Of a DNA stretch of 12,189 nt, positions 5,797 to 11,638 are shown piece after piece. Both the position numbers and the translations under genes were made by a program. How positions within the stretch are numbered: the stretch's first letter is position 1; every line of letters begins with the position of its first letter. Location: the NCBI GenBank assembly GCA_048938005.1, contig JBHLMQ010000074.1, positions 1-12,189 of the forward strand, written 5' to 3'. The stretch is from Promethearchaeota archaeon. GTDB taxonomy: Archaea > Asgardarchaeota > Lokiarchaeia > Sigyniarchaeales > SOKP01. The notes beneath the pieces are model-generated. The model saw nothing but the letters and a program-made list of their open reading frames with translations, did not search any database and had not been told where the DNA came from.

Positions 5797-8325
5797 TTAT
5801 TCATTATCATTTTGATGTTTTGAGTCATCATCACTAATCGGCTCTGATCCCCCATTATTAGGAGATTTTAGCTCATTTTCGCTTGAAGATTTTGGTGTTT
5901 CATCTTCCGATGGTTTTACTAGTTCTTCACTTTTTATTGCTCCTTCATGAGTCGGAGAAGGGGGAGCTTTATTTTCTTTAAGCTTAGGAGCCTTCGGACT
6001 CTGTTTTAATTTATCTTTTTTAATATATATTCGTTTTCGATTCTGAGTTGTTGTAAAAATTACTCCAGGAACAATAAGAGTAGCTCCTACACCAAGGATA
6101 ACTTGAAATAGATTTTCACTTAAATTCTGGGTGCCATATACTAATTCCTTGAAACTTTTAGCTAACTCTTCTGTTATTTGACCACCAAATTCAAGCCAAA
6201 GAATAGGTATTACTCCTTCCCAACAATTTTTATACCATATATCAGTTTTACTGATCATAAAGTTGATTTGGAATCTTTCAGCTGCTTTCATTACAGCCCC
6301 AGTGTTAGGTTCTACATCTAGAAAGGTATCATGAAGTCCCTTATTCGGATGTACTCCATATATAGAATTTATCAAATCACTATCTGCATCAAGGTAGTGC
6401 GGTTTACTTAAAAAAATAGGTATTCCTTGGTCTATAGTCATGTTGGCTAAGCCTTCTATTGATTGATAATAATTAAGATCAATTCCAAAAGTCTCATCTG
6501 ATAATTCGAACTGTAATAATTCAATATTTTGGAGATTAGTGGTTCCACTAAAGCTGAGTTCAACTGATCTTAACAAATCTGGTACAAAAACATGAAGTAC
6601 GTCTGTTTGTGAGACTTCTGGGGCGAATTGAGTACCATCTGTTCCCTGGACAATTTCTTGTTCTTTCCACACAGTAATAATTGCTTCACCATCATATTTA
6701 ATAATCTCATATACTTTATTTATATCATTTCTACCTGTATTTATTGTAAAACTTTTCATCCCTTCTACTTCTGCTTCAATTTCAGAAACGCAGTTATCAA
6801 ATATTCCTACTTTAGCTCTCGATGGATCTTGTTCATTTACCAAATTATCCACAGCAGTGAAGAGCCACTCATCTACAGTCCGAGTAGTAATGAGACCACT
6901 ATTCCAATCTTTAATGGTATATTCACAAATATTTTTGAGCCAGCCATTTATACTAGTATTTATCCAAACTAATATCAAATTTAATTGTGTTTCAGTTAGA
7001 TTAAATATATCCATTAAAAGTATCTTACTTTCTTCAATATCTGCAAGAGCTTCAAACCAAATGGGATTGGTAATTATATCCATTCCTACAAGTGAGTTAG
7101 GGTTATTTAAGTCCCAGAGAGCCTGGCATTGCCCCTGAGTTATTTCTGTTTCACCTTTTTTGCTATAATTAGTAATATTCAAATCCGCTTCTGGACCAGG
7201 ATAATTATATGGTTCTCGGCCATCAATATCAACGCCTATTCCTGTTTCACTACCTTCTTCATCAACCATTTCTGCCCCCAAATCTTGTATTAAATTCGAA
7301 AGAAGCCCTTTAATTGCTTCAGCGAATGGAGAGTCTGTAAATGCTGTTTCAATCATATTCTTTAATTCATCTTTAAGAGCATTTTTAATGGCATCAAAAA
7401 GGTGTAAAACATCCCAAAAGAAAATGAGATCAACAATAAAATCAACCAAATCATTAATAACATCTAAAAGGTTTCTGAATAATATTGATATATTCACTTG
7501 AACTTCAGGGAAATAATCAGTTGCCCATTCCCCAAAGAAAATTTCTTCTGCACTTGGCATAGCATCTTCCATAAATTCTACCAAATCTTCTAGAGGGATA
7601 ATGTAAGTAGTTAAAAAGTCAACGACCCACGTAGCAGTTAGATTAATAGCCTCTTCACCAAGAATCCCCGAAAATAATTCCCTAAACATATCGTTTAGGG
7701 CTCCAACTAGCATATCATAAACACCCTCATTAGTTAAAAGTTCTCTTAAAGTTATATTTAATTCTTGTCTAAATATTTCCTTCACTTCCAAAAGAACTGC
7801 TGGAAACATAGCTTTAATCAGGTTTTCTTCATTTCCAGCCAATTCTAAAACCCCTAAGTAAGCAGGATTTATATTTGTAATTTGATCCTCTGGACTACAC
7901 GAAGAATCAGACATTTCAGGTTCAAAAATATATGTTGGGTATTGTTTATAGGTAACTTCATCCCAATTTGGACTAAAACTCACATTATATTTAGTAGTAA
8001 ATTCTCGAAATATATATGGACCAACTTCTTCATATTCTGGTTTATCTCCCTTAAGAATTTCACTAGGATTAGTTAAATTCCATAAGTAGAATTTTCGATA
8101 CATTGGAATTGCTCCAGAATAATTATTTGAGATCCATTCACCATAATTAGAGGTAACAGGGAGTGGTACGCAAATTTCTTCTGCTATTCCTTTATTAATC
8201 TCAGATAGAATAAAATTCTTAAGTAAATAACTAGTGGGCATTAGGGAAAAGCCAAGAATTAAAGCTGTAAGGGCACCAGCAAGCTTTTTTTTTGATGGAG
8301 GAGATATTAAATTCTGTTTTTTAAT
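5797..8325 (-). CDS. CD36-family (class B scavenger receptor / LIMP-2-like) two-TM membrane glycoprotein with a large insertion; start uncertain (first in-frame ATG is 8241)
   Basis: Collinear CD36 motifs: YRKFYLWNLTNP.E, EVGPYIFRE, GLITTRTVDEWLF..VD, GTDGTQFAP, FVPDLLRS, PIFLSKPHYLDAD, GVHPN...HDTFLDVEPNTG....AERFQIN, IPILWLE. C-terminal TM LFQVILGVGATLIVPGVIF. The N-terminal TM KKKLAGALTALILGFSLMP is encoded in frame upstream of ATG 8241. Confidence 0.93.
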   Translation of the reverse strand: MKKQNLISPPSKKKLAGALTALILGFSLMPTSYLLKNFILSEINKGIAEEICVPLPVTSNYGEWISNNYSGAIPMYRKFYLWNLTNPSEILKGDKPEYEEVGPYIFREFTTKYNVSFSPNWDEVTYKQYPTYIFEPEMSDSSCSPEDQITNINPAYLGVLELAGNEENLIKAMFPAVLLEVKEIFRQELNITLRELLTNEGVYDMLVGALNDMFRELFSGILGEEAINLTATWVVDFLTTYIIPLEDLVEFMEDAMPSAEEIFFGEWATDYFPEVQVNISILFRNLLDVINDLVDFIVDLIFFWDVLHLFDAIKNALKDELKNMIETAFTDSPFAEAIKGLLSNLIQDLGAEMVDEEGSETGIGVDIDGREPYNYPGPEADLNITNYSKKGETEITQGQCQALWDLNNPNSLVGMDIITNPIWFEALADIEESKILLMDIFNLTETQLNLILVWINTSINGWLKNICEYTIKDWNSGLITTRTVDEWLFTAVDNLVNEQDPSRAKVGIFDNCVSEIEAEVEGMKSFTINTGRNDINKVYEIIKYDGEAIITVWKEQEIVQGTDGTQFAPEVSQTDVLHVFVPDLLRSVELSFSGTTNLQNIELLQFELSDETFGIDLNYYQSIEGLANMTIDQGIPIFLSKPHYLDADSDLINSIYGVHPNKGLHDTFLDVEPNTGAVMKAAERFQINFMISKTDIWYKNCWEGVIPILWLEFGGQITEELAKSFKELVYGTQNLSENLFQVILGVGATLIVPGVIFTTTQNRKRIYIKKDKLKQSPKAPKLKENKAPPSPTHEGAIKSEELVKPSEDETPKSSSENELKSPNNGGSEPISDDDSKHQNDNE

Positions 8326-8326
8326 T

Positions 8327-8340
8327 GGAGGTGCACCCCC
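8327..8340 (-). promoter_or_regulatory. SD-like GGGGGTG directly followed by anti-SD CACCTCC (imperfect 14-bp palindrome, possible hairpin)
   Basis: The minus strand reads GGGGGTGCACCTCC, which can form a GGGGG/CCUCC stem with a UGCA loop. It is a GC-rich patch in AT-rich DNA at the 5' end of the CD36 gene. Confidence 0.4.
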
Positions 8341-8356
8341 ATTTTTTATTGATATA

Positions 8357-8419
8357 ATTAATCATAATTGATTAATCAAGGGAAATATTTAAATATTGAT
8401 CAGTAATATTGTTGATCAA
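8357..8419. promoter_or_regulatory. Divergent promoter with a palindromic TATA box and candidate operator inverted repeats
   Basis: AATATTTAAATATT (8384-8397) is a perfect palindrome giving TTTAAATA on both strands. Also ATTAATCA-N4-TGATTAAT (8357-8376), TTGATTAATCAA (8368-8379) and TTGATCAA (8412-8419). Confidence 0.45.
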
Positions 8420-8429
8420 TAATTATCAA

Positions 8430-10112
8430 ATGAAAAAGATGTCCAAAAAAATAGTTATTATTTCTGCTGTGATACTTGCAGTTGGGTCAGGTTTGGTTCC
8501 TGGAGGAATCTTAATTGAGAATTATATTAATAATATGGTGGCAGACTCTGTTGACGAGGGTCTTTTAGGGATTGAAGAAGAAGCAATTCCTTTGATTGAA
8601 CCAATGATTAAAGAAAAGGGAATACCTAAAGCACTCAGGGGCATTAGAGATATGGGAATTCCTATTCTTGAAGACATGGTTGAAGTGACATTTGTTGCTG
8701 TATTAATTAATATTTTTGTTAATACTGGCGGTGTTGTTGGTACATTTCAACCCCCTATAGGTATGGAAAGATTCTTCAATAATGATACTAATGGAGTTTG
8801 GGTTATATTTAATGGTACCTCTTACCACTATCGTGAGCCTCTTAATTTTACTGAAGATGCTCAAAATAGGATATTATATGGAAATAGTACATCAGTTCCT
8901 GGTTATATTCCTGGTATTCAAGGCTTTCTTAATGATACCTCAACAGGTGAGGGTGTAGCTAATTTTTTAACTCAATATCATGCTGCTAATTCAAGTGGGA
9001 CTAGTCTACTGAATGAAACAATGCAAGAAAATTATAATTGTACTTGGTACCAACTATCTAAGCTTGAAGAATATATAACCGAATATTTGATCGGTTGGGC
9101 GATCCCCCTTGTAATCGGAGCTGGACTTCATGTAGATTACATGCCGGCATTAGCAGGACTCTTTTCAGTAAATGCTATTGCTAAAGCTTTATTCATGGAA
9201 CAATGGGCAAATGGTACAGTTTTGAATGAGACATTATACGAGGGAGGAATTGATTTTAGTGAAATGCTTGATGAAATAAATGAAACATTAATAGGATTTG
9301 AAGTTGGCCGTTTGACACCTTCGAATATAACACGTAAGAGTGCATATGCGCTCTTTGATGAGAACAATTTCCCTAATGCCCTAACAAATGATACAGGAAT
9401 TAATCAGTGGATTATTGCTTATACTAACGATACTGTTAAGGGTACATTAATGAATGAATTCAATCTAACTCAAACTCAGATGGACATGATACTTTTTTGG
9501 TTATTCGAAGAATCGTTTCAGGAAAATATTGTTCCGGAACTTATGAAGCTTCCTCCTCCAGATGGTGTAGGCATGAATATTTCACAATATGCGAGAGTTT
9601 TATTGTTGGAGCAATGGGCAAATGGCACCGCAGATGGTGAAGTTATATATCCATATGGATTTCCACTGCCATTAAAGGCAGGTACAGTATATGGATTTGA
9701 AGTTGGCTATCAAGGTAAAAACATGGCTGTTTTGCCAACTAACATGTCTCTTGAATCAGCAGAGGCTCTATGGAATGTTTCAAATGAATTTTCGCTTGTT
9801 AATAAAATGGGTCTAAGGAAGTGGTATTCTGCAATTGCAAATCCTACAACAGTATTAGCTAATGATCTCCAGATTATGAATTTTTTAGAAGATGAAGCAA
9901 TGAACATGATACTAAATTGGTTACCGAAATTTAGAGATAATGTTATGCCATATCTTGCTCAAGAAGAAATGAATTTGCCGATGGATTCAACTTCATATGC
10001 ATTAGCAATAAATCTAGGAATGAGTATACCGGGAGGAATTCTTATTGGCCTTGGGGCATTAGGCATAGCCCGAGATATTATCATTAAAAGAAAGCTTAAG
10101 ATTGAATCTTAA
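8430..10112 (+). CDS. Two-TM repeat membrane glycoprotein related to the CD36 insertion (probable start ATG 8430 or 8439 rather than TTG 8409)
   Basis: N-terminal KKIVIISAVILAVGSGLVPGGILI and C-terminal hydrophobic helix followed by a basic tail. About 19 N-x-S/T sequons lie between them, with internal repeats (EQWANGT x2, GFEVG x2). Confidence 0.85.
   Translation: MKKMSKKIVIISAVILAVGSGLVPGGILIENYINNMVADSVDEGLLGIEEEAIPLIEPMIKEKGIPKALRGIRDMGIPILEDMVEVTFVAVLINIFVNTGGVVGTFQPPIGMERFFNNDTNGVWVIFNGTSYHYREPLNFTEDAQNRILYGNSTSVPGYIPGIQGFLNDTSTGEGVANFLTQYHAANSSGTSLLNETMQENYNCTWYQLSKLEEYITEYLIGWAIPLVIGAGLHVDYMPALAGLFSVNAIAKALFMEQWANGTVLNETLYEGGIDFSEMLDEINETLIGFEVGRLTPSNITRKSAYALFDENNFPNALTNDTGINQWIIAYTNDTVKGTLMNEFNLTQTQMDMILFWLFEESFQENIVPELMKLPPPDGVGMNISQYARVLLLEQWANGTADGEVIYPYGFPLPLKAGTVYGFEVGYQGKNMAVLPTNMSLESAEALWNVSNEFSLVNKMGLRKWYSAIANPTTVLANDLQIMNFLEDEAMNMILNWLPKFRDNVMPYLAQEEMNLPMDSTSYALAINLGMSIPGGILIGLGALGIARDIIIKRKLKIES
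9198..9960 (+). repeat. Intragenic tandem duplication, period ~137 aa (411 nt)
   Basis: EQWANGT codons start at 9198 and 9609; identical 15-mer ggatttgaagttggc at 9294 and 9693; matching blocks SAYALFD/SAEALWN and MDMILFWL/MNMILNWL. Confidence 0.85.
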
Positions 10113-10139: not shown

Positions 10140-10697
10140 TTAGAAATTTTTTTCTTTTTTTGATTTCTTAATTTTTTCATATTTTTTAATAGCTCGATCT
10201 CGCCAAACTGTATTCCACTTTTTAAATCCTGATTTTACATGCTTCTCTCTATTAAAAAAGTCATAACAAACCCAATTAAATAATATAAAGAATCTTTTTG
10301 CCCCACTTTTCTTAGTTAAGCTTTTTGATCTTACACCCAAATCATTTTGAAGGTGCTGTATCAATTTTCCTTCAACAGCATCTTGCAGTCTCCCTTCAAC
10401 TACTGTGTCTTCATAATTGATGCCTTCATCAAAGAAATAATCTCTTACTTTATCAAAGATATTACCCCTACAGAGATGAATAACATCAGTTTCTTTTTGG
10501 AATTTTAACTCAGCCAAGCCTTCTTTAACTAATTCTACAGTTTCTTTTAATGGTCTTTTGTTTTCCCAATTTTCTCCCTTAAATAAATCTACTGGTATTG
10601 TTCGAAATACTAATTCTCCTGTTTCTTTTCTTAGGAAACCAATGAAGGCATCTCCTACTAAATCTCCAGTTCCAGCATCATCTATTTCAATCATCAT
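10140..10697 (-). CDS. Archaeal hypothetical protein with an RNase HII-like N-terminal motif
   Basis: IEIDDAGTGDLVGDAFIG parallels the GIDEAGRG..IG motif of RNase HII; 185 aa with a basic C-terminus. Confidence 0.7.
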   Translation of the reverse strand: MMIEIDDAGTGDLVGDAFIGFLRKETGELVFRTIPVDLFKGENWENKRPLKETVELVKEGLAELKFQKETDVIHLCRGNIFDKVRDYFFDEGINYEDTVVEGRLQDAVEGKLIQHLQNDLGVRSKSLTKKSGAKRFFILFNWVCYDFFNREKHVKSGFKKWNTVWRDRAIKKYEKIKKSKKEKNF

Positions 10698-10843: not shown

Positions 10844-11638
10844 ATGGAAATTGAGCTGTTAATGATTGGAAACGAAATTCTTATCGGAAAAACTCAAGAT
10901 ACTAATTCTAATTGGATGGCAAAAAGAATTACTAGATTTGGACACAAGGTCAAGAGAATAACAACTATAGGAGATGATTTAGAAACAATATCTTATACAT
11001 TAAAAGACATATTAAAAAGAAATCCAGATATTATCATAACTTCAGGGGGAATAGGCCCAACGTTTGATGATATGACTTTAGCTGGAATTGCTAAGGGTTT
11101 GAACAGGGATTTAGAGTTAAACAAACATGCTTATAATTCAATTAAAAAGGCTTACAAACAAGCTCATAAAAAAGGATTATTAAAACTTGAAGGAATGACA
11201 AAAGAAAGAGAAAAAATGGCTTACCTCCCAAATGATTCAATTCCATTACCTAATACTATAGGTACTGCTCCTGGAGTTAAGATTAATGAAGGAAAGACTA
11301 CTATTTTTATTTTACCTGGGGTACCTGCCGAGATGAAAGCAATGTTTAGAAATGTCATTACCCCACTTTTAAAAGAACAGAAGGGTAAATTCATAGAAAA
11401 AGGATTTCTTTTCTCAGGAATTGGAGAGAGTCAGATAGCAGCTTATACAAACAGATTAGAAAAAAAATATCCTCAACTTTGGATTAAAACCCATCCTCGC
11501 ATTGGGTTATCTGTTGAGGTTGAGGTTTCTATAACTGCATTTAATATTGAAAATGGAGAGGAATTAATTGATAGAGCCTTAAATGAAATTAGAGAAATAG
11601 TCTTAAACCTTAAAGGTAAAATAATAGAAAGAGAATAA
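10844..11638 (+). CDS. cinA: CinA-like molybdopterin-binding (MoCF_biosynth) domain protein, lacking the C-terminal PncC domain
   Basis: IGNEILIGKTQDTNSNW, IGDD, ITSGGIGPTFDDMT, KMAYLP, LPNTIGTAPG, LPGVPAEMKAM, GIGESQIA; SD-like GGTGA upstream. Confidence 0.9.
   Translation: MEIELLMIGNEILIGKTQDTNSNWMAKRITRFGHKVKRITTIGDDLETISYTLKDILKRNPDIIITSGGIGPTFDDMTLAGIAKGLNRDLELNKHAYNSIKKAYKQAHKKGLLKLEGMTKEREKMAYLPNDSIPLPNTIGTAPGVKINEGKTTIFILPGVPAEMKAMFRNVITPLLKEQKGKFIEKGFLFSGIGESQIAAYTNRLEKKYPQLWIKTHPRIGLSVEVEVSITAFNIENGEELIDRALNEIREIVLNLKGKIIERE

Follow-up and report, generated by a model that had tools for sequence, protein, structure and literature searches.

CD36-type scavenger receptors of class B (SR-B; PF01130), represented by LIMP-2, CD36 and SR-B1, are hairpin proteins with two transmembrane (TM) helices, short cytoplasmic tails, and a beta-barrel core enclosing a lipid tunnel. 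In passages of Boohar et al. (2023, Genome Biol Evol, PMC10715195) these receptors are treated as eukaryotic and are traced to the last eukaryotic common ancestor, and the apex of the fold, next to the tunnel entrance, is given as the ligand-recognition region, which expands lineage-specifically in eukaryotes. According to the same passages, the expansions are all-helical, lie at one position of the CD36 fold between the strands flanking a three-helix bundle, and stay within a complete CD36 barrel, in eukaryotes only; the authors propose that they tune ligand recognition. The terms 'archaea', 'prokaryot' and 'Asgard' have 0 occurrences in the text of that paper. Full-text searches of the literature, with subscription-only papers outside their scope, returned no paper linking CD36 to Asgard archaea and none describing the protein family reported here, and the literature on PF01130 was all eukaryotic among the matches listed.

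In our study, a stretch of 12,189 nucleotides from a Promethearchaeota archaeon (the window, positions 1 to 12,189 of contig JBHLMQ010000074.1, assembly GCA_048938005.1) has been analysed, with attention to one open reading frame (ORF A, 8430..10112, + strand) and to the CD36-family gene, B, which is transcribed divergently from it. Protein A appears to carry the apex of a CD36 protein between two membrane anchors, without the barrel. The contig (C27) belongs to a genome of 3.7 Mb in 101 contigs with a completeness of 95% and a contamination of 7%, and the window is AT-rich (GC 25-36%). The contig is taken to be Asgard and not contamination, because the gene order around ORF A is common to many Asgard contigs; the named homologues of the studied genes are all Asgard as well (Promethearchaeota/Promethearchaeia, Hermod-, Hod-, Thor-, Odin- and Sigynarchaeota labels).

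The ectodomain of protein A and the apex of distant CD36 proteins

The features of ORF A, given in window coordinates with amino acid (aa) positions and the evidence used, are listed below; HMM stands for hidden Markov model and AF2 for AlphaFold2.

8430..10112, + strand: ORF A, a 560-aa two-TM protein with an all-helical ectodomain (Pfam, homologues, AF2 model)
8430..8609, + strand: N-terminal block, aa 1-60, with a homologous counterpart at the N-terminus of the CD36 neighbour B (hhalign with shuffle control)
8451..8519, + strand: TM helix 1, aa ~8-30, preceded by MKKMSKK, a positive-inside arrangement (hydropathy; AF2 helix 6-38)
8610..9134, + strand: 'mid' helical domain, aa 61-235; distant Asgard CD36 proteins contain it in their apex, and in A it holds a putative third repeat copy that is not significant (block HMMs, hhalign)
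9135..9554, + strand: repeat unit 1, aa 236-375, with sub-module a containing EQWANGT and sub-module b of five helices ending in ILFWL (BLASTP, hhalign, HMM, AF2)
9555..9965, + strand: repeat unit 2, aa 376-512 (BLASTP, hhalign, HMM)
9999..10073, + strand: TM helix 2, aa ~524-548, followed by KRKLKIES (hydropathy, AF2; weak match to the CD36 C-terminal TM block)

As listed, the open frame of A begins with TTG and spans 8409-10112, with ATG codons at 8430 and 8439. The sequence MSKK, corresponding to 8439, is the start in most homologues, and the ATG at 8439 is likely to be the true start.

A profile of the A family was searched against 201 genomes sampled across the phylum and matched 32 of them. 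In three of these, from two other taxonomic families, the match lies inside CD36 ORFs, namely L071 (919 aa), L072 (1037 aa) and L073 (1368 aa). All three show, with block HMMs, the same order: N-terminal block, first barrel half, A mid domain, one unit, second barrel half and C-terminal TM. The mid domain is recognized in L071, L072 and L073 with E-values of 6e-17, 6.5e-15 and 7e-11 respectively, covering positions 8-182 of 186 in L071; the unit comprises both sub-modules in L071 and L073, and only sub-module b was detected in L072. The units of these distant proteins read FYEQWANGS...GFEA...LFD...YSLTN...WY.A...QL..LL.WI..F..NLVP.LL. Because distant Asgard CD36 proteins hold the mid domain and the unit between their barrel halves, protein A can be described as a CD36 apex without the barrel. 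Its full ectodomain architecture is thus the apex of a CD36 protein, and the whole of A corresponds to such a protein minus the two barrel halves and with the unit duplicated.

The duplication itself is evident within A. Residues 235-375 and 375-515 are 33.8% identical over 139 aa (BLASTP, E 1.2e-16), and the family profiles of unit 1 and unit 2 align with an hhalign probability of 99.9% (E 1.1e-33). Hence, A carries a genuine tandem repeat of ~137 aa with two full units. The signature of the complete unit (a+b), EQWANG.. / G.D.. / GFEVG / ..LW...N..SL.N..G...W / ..ILxWL..F..N.VP.L, is present twice. A sequence-only reading of the window had also proposed a diverged earlier copy, LNFTEDAQ...YNCTWYQL; this segment is in register with the repeats, yet its hhalign match (E 0.005, 7% probability) is not significant and the proposal was dropped.

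Sub-module a (for example, window 9168-9272) can be aligned without gaps to the 48-aa Cpl-7 / CW_7 repeat of PDB 5i8l, a repeat that binds cell-wall peptidoglycan, with ..EQWANGT...L...G.D..... facing W.NG...L..aGyD, at a summed whole-chain E of 0.008. That score consists of three copies of one ~6-bit match. No unit (0/28) matches any Pfam CW_7 model at E<=10, so membership of the units in that family was rejected and the resemblance is regarded as a weak lead, not a relationship.

The absence of a CD36 core from A, already noted from the letters of the sequence, was borne out at every level searched. Pfam returned 0 families at E<=0.01, the barrel block HMMs core1 and core2 gave no match at 1e-3, and no block of A reached an hhalign probability above 3.7% against either barrel block. 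Unlike CD36/SR-B, A therefore has no PF01130 match and no beta-barrel core, hence no CD36-type lipid tunnel, and it carries the apex module as a tandem duplicate.

The AF2 model of A, built from a 29-sequence alignment (pLDDT 87.3, pTM 0.75), is nearly all helical with few short strands and has long terminal helices at 6-38 and 520-559. Hydropathy peaks lie at aa 4-30 and 524-548, and both termini are rich in K/R. The two-TM layout common to A and the CD36 neighbour, as proposed earlier, is thus reproduced by prediction, and A is predicted to be a hairpin with both termini inside as short cytoplasmic tails, as in CD36, and a large ectodomain outside. The ectodomain contains 19 N-x-S/T sequons, whereas 4.4 +/- 1.9 are expected from 2000 shuffles of its own residues, none of which (0/2000) reached 19. 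Nine sequon columns are kept in at least half of the 29 homologues, and A has 3.4 sequons per 100 aa against 0-1.4 in four presumably cytoplasmic proteins of the window. Such a sequon-rich ectodomain, as in CD36/SR-B, is the pattern that an N-glycosylated extracellular domain would show, and it points to a probable surface location.

One strongly hydrophobic ectodomain helix (Kyte-Doolittle 19-mer mean >1.6) is present in each of the two proteins: VEVTFVAVLINIFVNTGGVV in A (window 8652-8747, aa ~75-106) and LVDFIVDLIFFWDVLHLF in B (window 7399-7470, aa ~281-304). Either could lie within the core of its helical domain or could penetrate a membrane or a lipid ligand.

Homology to the neighbouring CD36 protein

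The neighbour and the region between the two genes comprise the following features.

5797..8310, - strand: B, a CD36-family protein, divergent from A (PF01130, LIMP-2 phmmer, Foldseek)
6976..7842, - strand: helical apex insert of B, ~290 aa, aa 157-445, between two LIMP-2-aligned stretches (phmmer, AF2)
6961..7149, - strand: b-type sub-module, aa 388-450, within the apex insert of B; both A repeats are homologous to it (BLASTP, hhalign, shuffles)
7513..7551, - strand: a-like motif AEEIFFGEWAT of B, aa 254-266 (hhalign E 9e-6 / 1.3e-4)
8311..8429, no strand: short, AT-rich spacer between the divergent genes B and A (sequence)

B matches PF01130 in two stretches with E 1.8e-90 (Pfam), and phmmer against the PDB recovers LIMP-2 (E 1.9e-46) and CD36 (E 4.1e-36). 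Its AF2 model (pLDDT 76.8) is matched by Foldseek to LIMP-2 with E 1e-24 and a target TM-score of 0.81-0.83, and to CD36 (5lgd) with a TM-score of 0.78. By its PF01130 match and its predicted CD36 fold, B is assigned to the CD36 family. The parts aligned to LIMP-2 are residues 66-156 and 446-725, with the all-helical insert of ~290 aa at the position of the LIMP-2 apex helices. After LIMP-2 and CD36, the next Foldseek match of B is LmcA of Mycobacterium smegmatis (7shw, 7n3v; E 5e-5, target TM-score 0.34-0.36), a hint that part of the barrel has a remote relative in bacteria.

The start of B is unusual. The frame 5797-8361 (- strand) has no ATG before TM1, and the first ATG, at 8241, lies inside TM1 (…ILGFSL-MPTSYLL) and would cut it. 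A 90%-identical homologue (P0111) begins MSIKNSGASP…, where the window has …LIISIKNGGAPP… after a stop. Probably B starts at a non-ATG codon upstream (ATA or ATT around 8350-8358), or its start codon has been mutated.

Whole-protein BLASTP of A against B gives E 7e-6. The similarity of the A repeats to the CD36 insert, claimed from the letters, proved significant by BLASTP (repeat 1, E 2.2e-7; repeat 2, E 1e-3) and by hhalign of a 29-sequence A family against a 27-sequence CD36 family, where B 388-450 is matched with 98.4% (E 6.7e-15) and 94.9% (E 4.5e-8) probability; the best of 40 column shuffles reached E 0.019 and 0.0015, and reversed profiles 0.058 and 0.14. Moreover, the five-helix pattern of the b-module is the same in the independent AF2 models, at 302-308, 324-330, 334-344, 348-361 and 363-372 in A and at 392-398, 417-422, 426-436, 440-454 and 457-468 in B. 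The parallel drawn between LFMEQWAN of A and FFGEWAT of B fared less evenly, being weak within this pair (hhalign E 9e-6, 83%, and E 1.3e-4, 54%) and plain in distant CD36 inserts, which carry FYEQWANGS and FLEQWANGT.

The flanks are also related. The N-terminal blocks, whose similarity had likewise been seen from the letters, align over 38 columns with a probability of 97.2% and E 2.9e-11, against E 6.5e-5 for the best of 40 shuffles and E 7e-4 for the N-terminus of A against the C-terminal TM of B; the match spans TM1 and the next helix within the first 60 residues of A. The C-terminal TM blocks match weakly (81.5%, E 1.2e-5), and A 497-560 aligns to the juxtamembrane end of B, 692-789, at 58.6%. 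Hence, A is not a CD36-family member by the defining barrel and is homologous to that family outside it, in the flanks and the apex: its N-terminal TM/juxtamembrane block is homologous to that of Asgard CD36 proteins and its ectodomain is made of their apex modules. The homology is thus stronger and broader than the sequence-only reading suggested.

Spread of the repeat family and gene neighbourhood

A unit profile (A3; 28 units, 133 positions) was scored against 1.84 billion cluster representatives and matched 259 at E<=1e-3, 140 at E<=1e-10 and 62 at E<=1e-30. The suggestion that the repeat defines a new domain family is upheld by these 259 representatives and by the lack of any Pfam or solved-structure match. 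The unit matches carrying a source name were all Asgard (best 120 of 191). Thirty matches were hand-picked from 150 listed, the longest ones along with long ones having a single unit; 25 were CD36-family proteins, three were fusions with LVIVD repeats and two had no Pfam family. From the LVIVD fusions it follows that the unit is reused outside CD36-like contexts, and it would be a portable, extracellular Asgard surface module.

Several of these proteins are remarkable in size or composition. P0205, P0209, P0218, P0226, P0227, P0232 and P0236 are CD36 proteins of 2000-2700 aa with the PF01130 halves at the extreme ends and 6-10 stretches matching the unit profile between them, so that the apex insert would be about 1700-2300 aa. 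P0253, P0287 and P0289, of ~800 aa, carry units at the C-terminus in addition to LVIVD beta-propeller repeats (PF08309, E 1e-41 to 1e-54).

Among the proteins collected, a set biased by the queries used, 261 carry units without a barrel (1-7 copies, mostly 2) and 83 carry them inside CD36, 11 of which also hold the mid domain; three of the 86 Asgard CD36 proteins collected have no unit (L075 is such a protein). The genome studied holds a second, standalone family member, a 1008-aa open frame on contig C10 (G000:C10:3872-6895; L074:1373-4396, + strand), in which three mid-like segments precede three b-type modules; its C-terminal TM block was not detected by the block HMMs. Tandem paralogues of ~558 aa and ~546 aa, roughly 50% identical to each other, occur at L010, L013, L020, L021 and L045, and the window locus has only the 558-type copy of the A family. 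Close relatives of A are 74-91% identical. At least half of the sampled sequence words were found in 13 DNA runs labelled as sediment or mangrove metagenomes; no RNA run was among the runs found, which carries no weight on expression.

The A family was found in 27 of 40 sampled genomes of its own taxonomic family and, within the 201-genome sample, was not found outside a few Asgard lineages. These genomes are metagenome-assembled, with an estimated completeness of 81-100%, and absence means not found. CD36 scored above the Pfam cut-off in 13 of the 201, including three of the ten other genomes of the same genus, and standalone A was present in 29, of which two hold no more than weak fragments of it. 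Both occur in 8 genomes, standalone A without detected CD36 in 21 and CD36 without standalone A in 5.

Gene order was compared at 38 A-family loci in other genomes; the upstream sequence reaches at least 2.3 kb at 29 of these loci. A adjoins a CD36 gene at one of the 38, L014, an 84%-identical orthologue that is divergent from CD36 as in the window; at both, A and B are divergently transcribed and about 120 bp apart. The A-CD36 adjacency is lineage-specific. Elsewhere A, frequently accompanied by a tandem paralogue, lies without CD36 in a conserved and strongly syntenic block. Its order is zinc-ribbon ORF, 629-aa TPR protein, 218-aa ORF, 109-230-aa ORF, A, 185-aa ORF, CinA-like protein, and 14-19 of 39 loci show it, the number varying with the flanking gene considered. 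In the window and L014 the CD36 gene is inserted into this block. Two of its members lie downstream of A in the window:

10140-10697, - strand: 185-aa ORF with no Pfam family, directly downstream of A in 18/39 loci
10844-11638, + strand: CinA-like MoCF_biosynth protein, after the 185-aa ORF, in 19/39 loci

Origin and role of the barrel-less protein

The best explanation, which we hold to be probable, is that A is a barrel-less CD36 derivative that would capture ligands or mediate adhesion through apex modules displayed at the cell surface. In this view, an apex-expanded CD36 gene would have lost both barrel halves while keeping its N- and C-terminal TM flanks, and the unit would then have been tandemly duplicated. 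Barrel loss is somewhat favoured as the direction of evolution because the TM flanks also match, which an inserted ectodomain would not carry, and because the hhalign alignment does not stop at the final helix of the unit and extends into that part of B which aligns to the LIMP-2 apex helices. Both points leave difficulties for the opposite course, in which a standalone two-TM repeat family is older, an Asgard CD36 gene acquired that family's ectodomain cassette in its apex loop, and A is not a degenerate CD36; the N-terminal TM and juxtamembrane match, the weaker C-terminal TM match and the extension to the apex-aligned helix would then be left unexplained. Such donation is the less likely course, with a real though minor share of the probability. 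In favour of donation, the unit behaves as a mobile module (LVIVD fusions in 3/30 examined, 1-7 copies per protein), standalone A is in 29 genomes against 13 for CD36, CD36 proteins without the unit exist, PDB searches with the unit profile and with the family profile recover neither LIMP-2 nor CD36, and apex expansions arose independently in eukaryotes according to parts of PMC10715195.

Several observations weigh against deriving A from CD36. The larger number of standalone forms in the biased collection fits donation equally well. In a midpoint-rooted FastTree phylogeny of 121 units, sampled from the 292 non-redundant ones among 633, deep nodes are poorly supported and CD36-embedded units are scattered, and the tree gives no polarity; of the earlier proposal that A is a paralog without the barrel or the donor of the insert, the kinship to CD36 and the absence of the barrel stand, and barrel loss is no more than the likelier of the two directions. 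The TM-flank similarity lies in hydrophobic, low-complexity segments, where the best N-terminal shuffle itself reached E 6.5e-5. The CD36 protein of the window shares only the b sub-module and the short a-motif with the apex of A, and the A mid domain does not match its insert (hhalign E 0.63; B blocks ins1 and ins2 without a match to mid), so that the apex appears to have diverged in this CD36 lineage. Further, the fold of the ectodomain offers no functional hint, because no solved relative was found: comparison of the A model with solved structures gave nothing beyond generic helical hairpins, the A-family profile had 0 matches at E<=10 among PDB sequences, including no LIMP-2 or CD36 chain, and the ESM Atlas search gave no usable match.

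As for its role, two apex modules of A would be exposed on the cell by a helical stalk, without a tunnel; A would capture or adhere to a ligand, for instance a partner cell or a particle that is lipidic or carries glycans, and would not channel lipid into the membrane. Binding without channelling is proposed because the apex docks ligands in eukaryotic CD36, LIMP-2 and SR-B1 and A has no tunnel. The most economical reading, by analogy, is thus a surface receptor or adhesin for the same ligand class as the Asgard CD36 apex, without lipid transfer. It would act independently of CD36, since 21 genomes have standalone A without detected CD36.

This distribution bears directly on the idea, raised by the sequence-only reading, that A pairs physically with its CD36 neighbour by way of their homologous modules at the apex and adjusts the delivery of ligand to the tunnel. 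The divergent genes about 120 bp apart in the window and L014 and the homology of the modules speak for such a co-receptor; adjacency at only one of 38 loci, the same block without CD36 elsewhere, the 21 of 29 genomes with a standalone member and no detected CD36 and the five with CD36 alone weaken it, and we consider physical pairing very improbable and an obligate co-receptor role unlikely. A complex prediction of the A ectodomain (40-520) with the B apex (150-470) gave a score of 0.00 against a mark of 0.32, with no controls, and carries no weight either way on binding. A purely structural role, as a bulk glycocalyx or coat component of an S-layer-less Asgard envelope with no specific ligand, is unlikely as well, though several observations would suit it: the strong enrichment and conservation of sequons, the 74-91% identity among close relatives, the fixed position in the conserved block, the presence in 27/40 genomes of its taxonomic family and the paralogues, tandem in several relatives. 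Conserved aromatic-rich motifs and the reuse of the module at the ligand-binding apex of CD36 point instead to binding, and a family confined in the sample to a few Asgard lineages would not be a universal part of the envelope. A decoy role, in which A imitates the CD36 apex and soaks up viruses or toxins directed at that apex, would explain apex modules common to CD36 without a functional barrel and a repeat number that varies across the family; the many genomes with the family and without CD36, and repeats that are highly conserved and not fast-evolving, make this hardly credible. The preferred reading remains an apex-derived receptor or adhesin.

A broader and doubtful extension of that reading is that Asgard archaea possess a dedicated modular 'CD36-apex' recognition domain used in three ways, namely on barrels (in up to 7 or more copies), in free-standing two-TM proteins and on LVIVD propellers, the free-standing form being a main cell-surface adhesin or receptor for partner cells or lipid-/glycan-bearing particles. 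If true, this would be a prokaryotic forerunner of scavenger-receptor-type recognition, and ligand docking and lipid channelling would have been separable before eukaryotes arose.

This study indicates that Asgard archaea have bona fide CD36-fold proteins, whose apex, probably the ligand-sensing part, is made from a distinct domain that can be repeated and that lacks both a Pfam model and a solved relative. Like the eukaryotic expansions, the Asgard apex is predicted to be all-helical and at the same position of the CD36 fold; unlike them, it consists of a repeat family that is also free-standing. The CD36 apex also exists alone, as a family of membrane-anchored proteins with predicted glycosylation, of which A is the founding example in the window. 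The new domain family can be used to annotate several hundred 'hypothetical' Asgard proteins and yields candidates for the little-characterised surface proteins of these archaea. Moreover, an apex without a tunnel may provide a natural separation-of-function case for the CD36 family.

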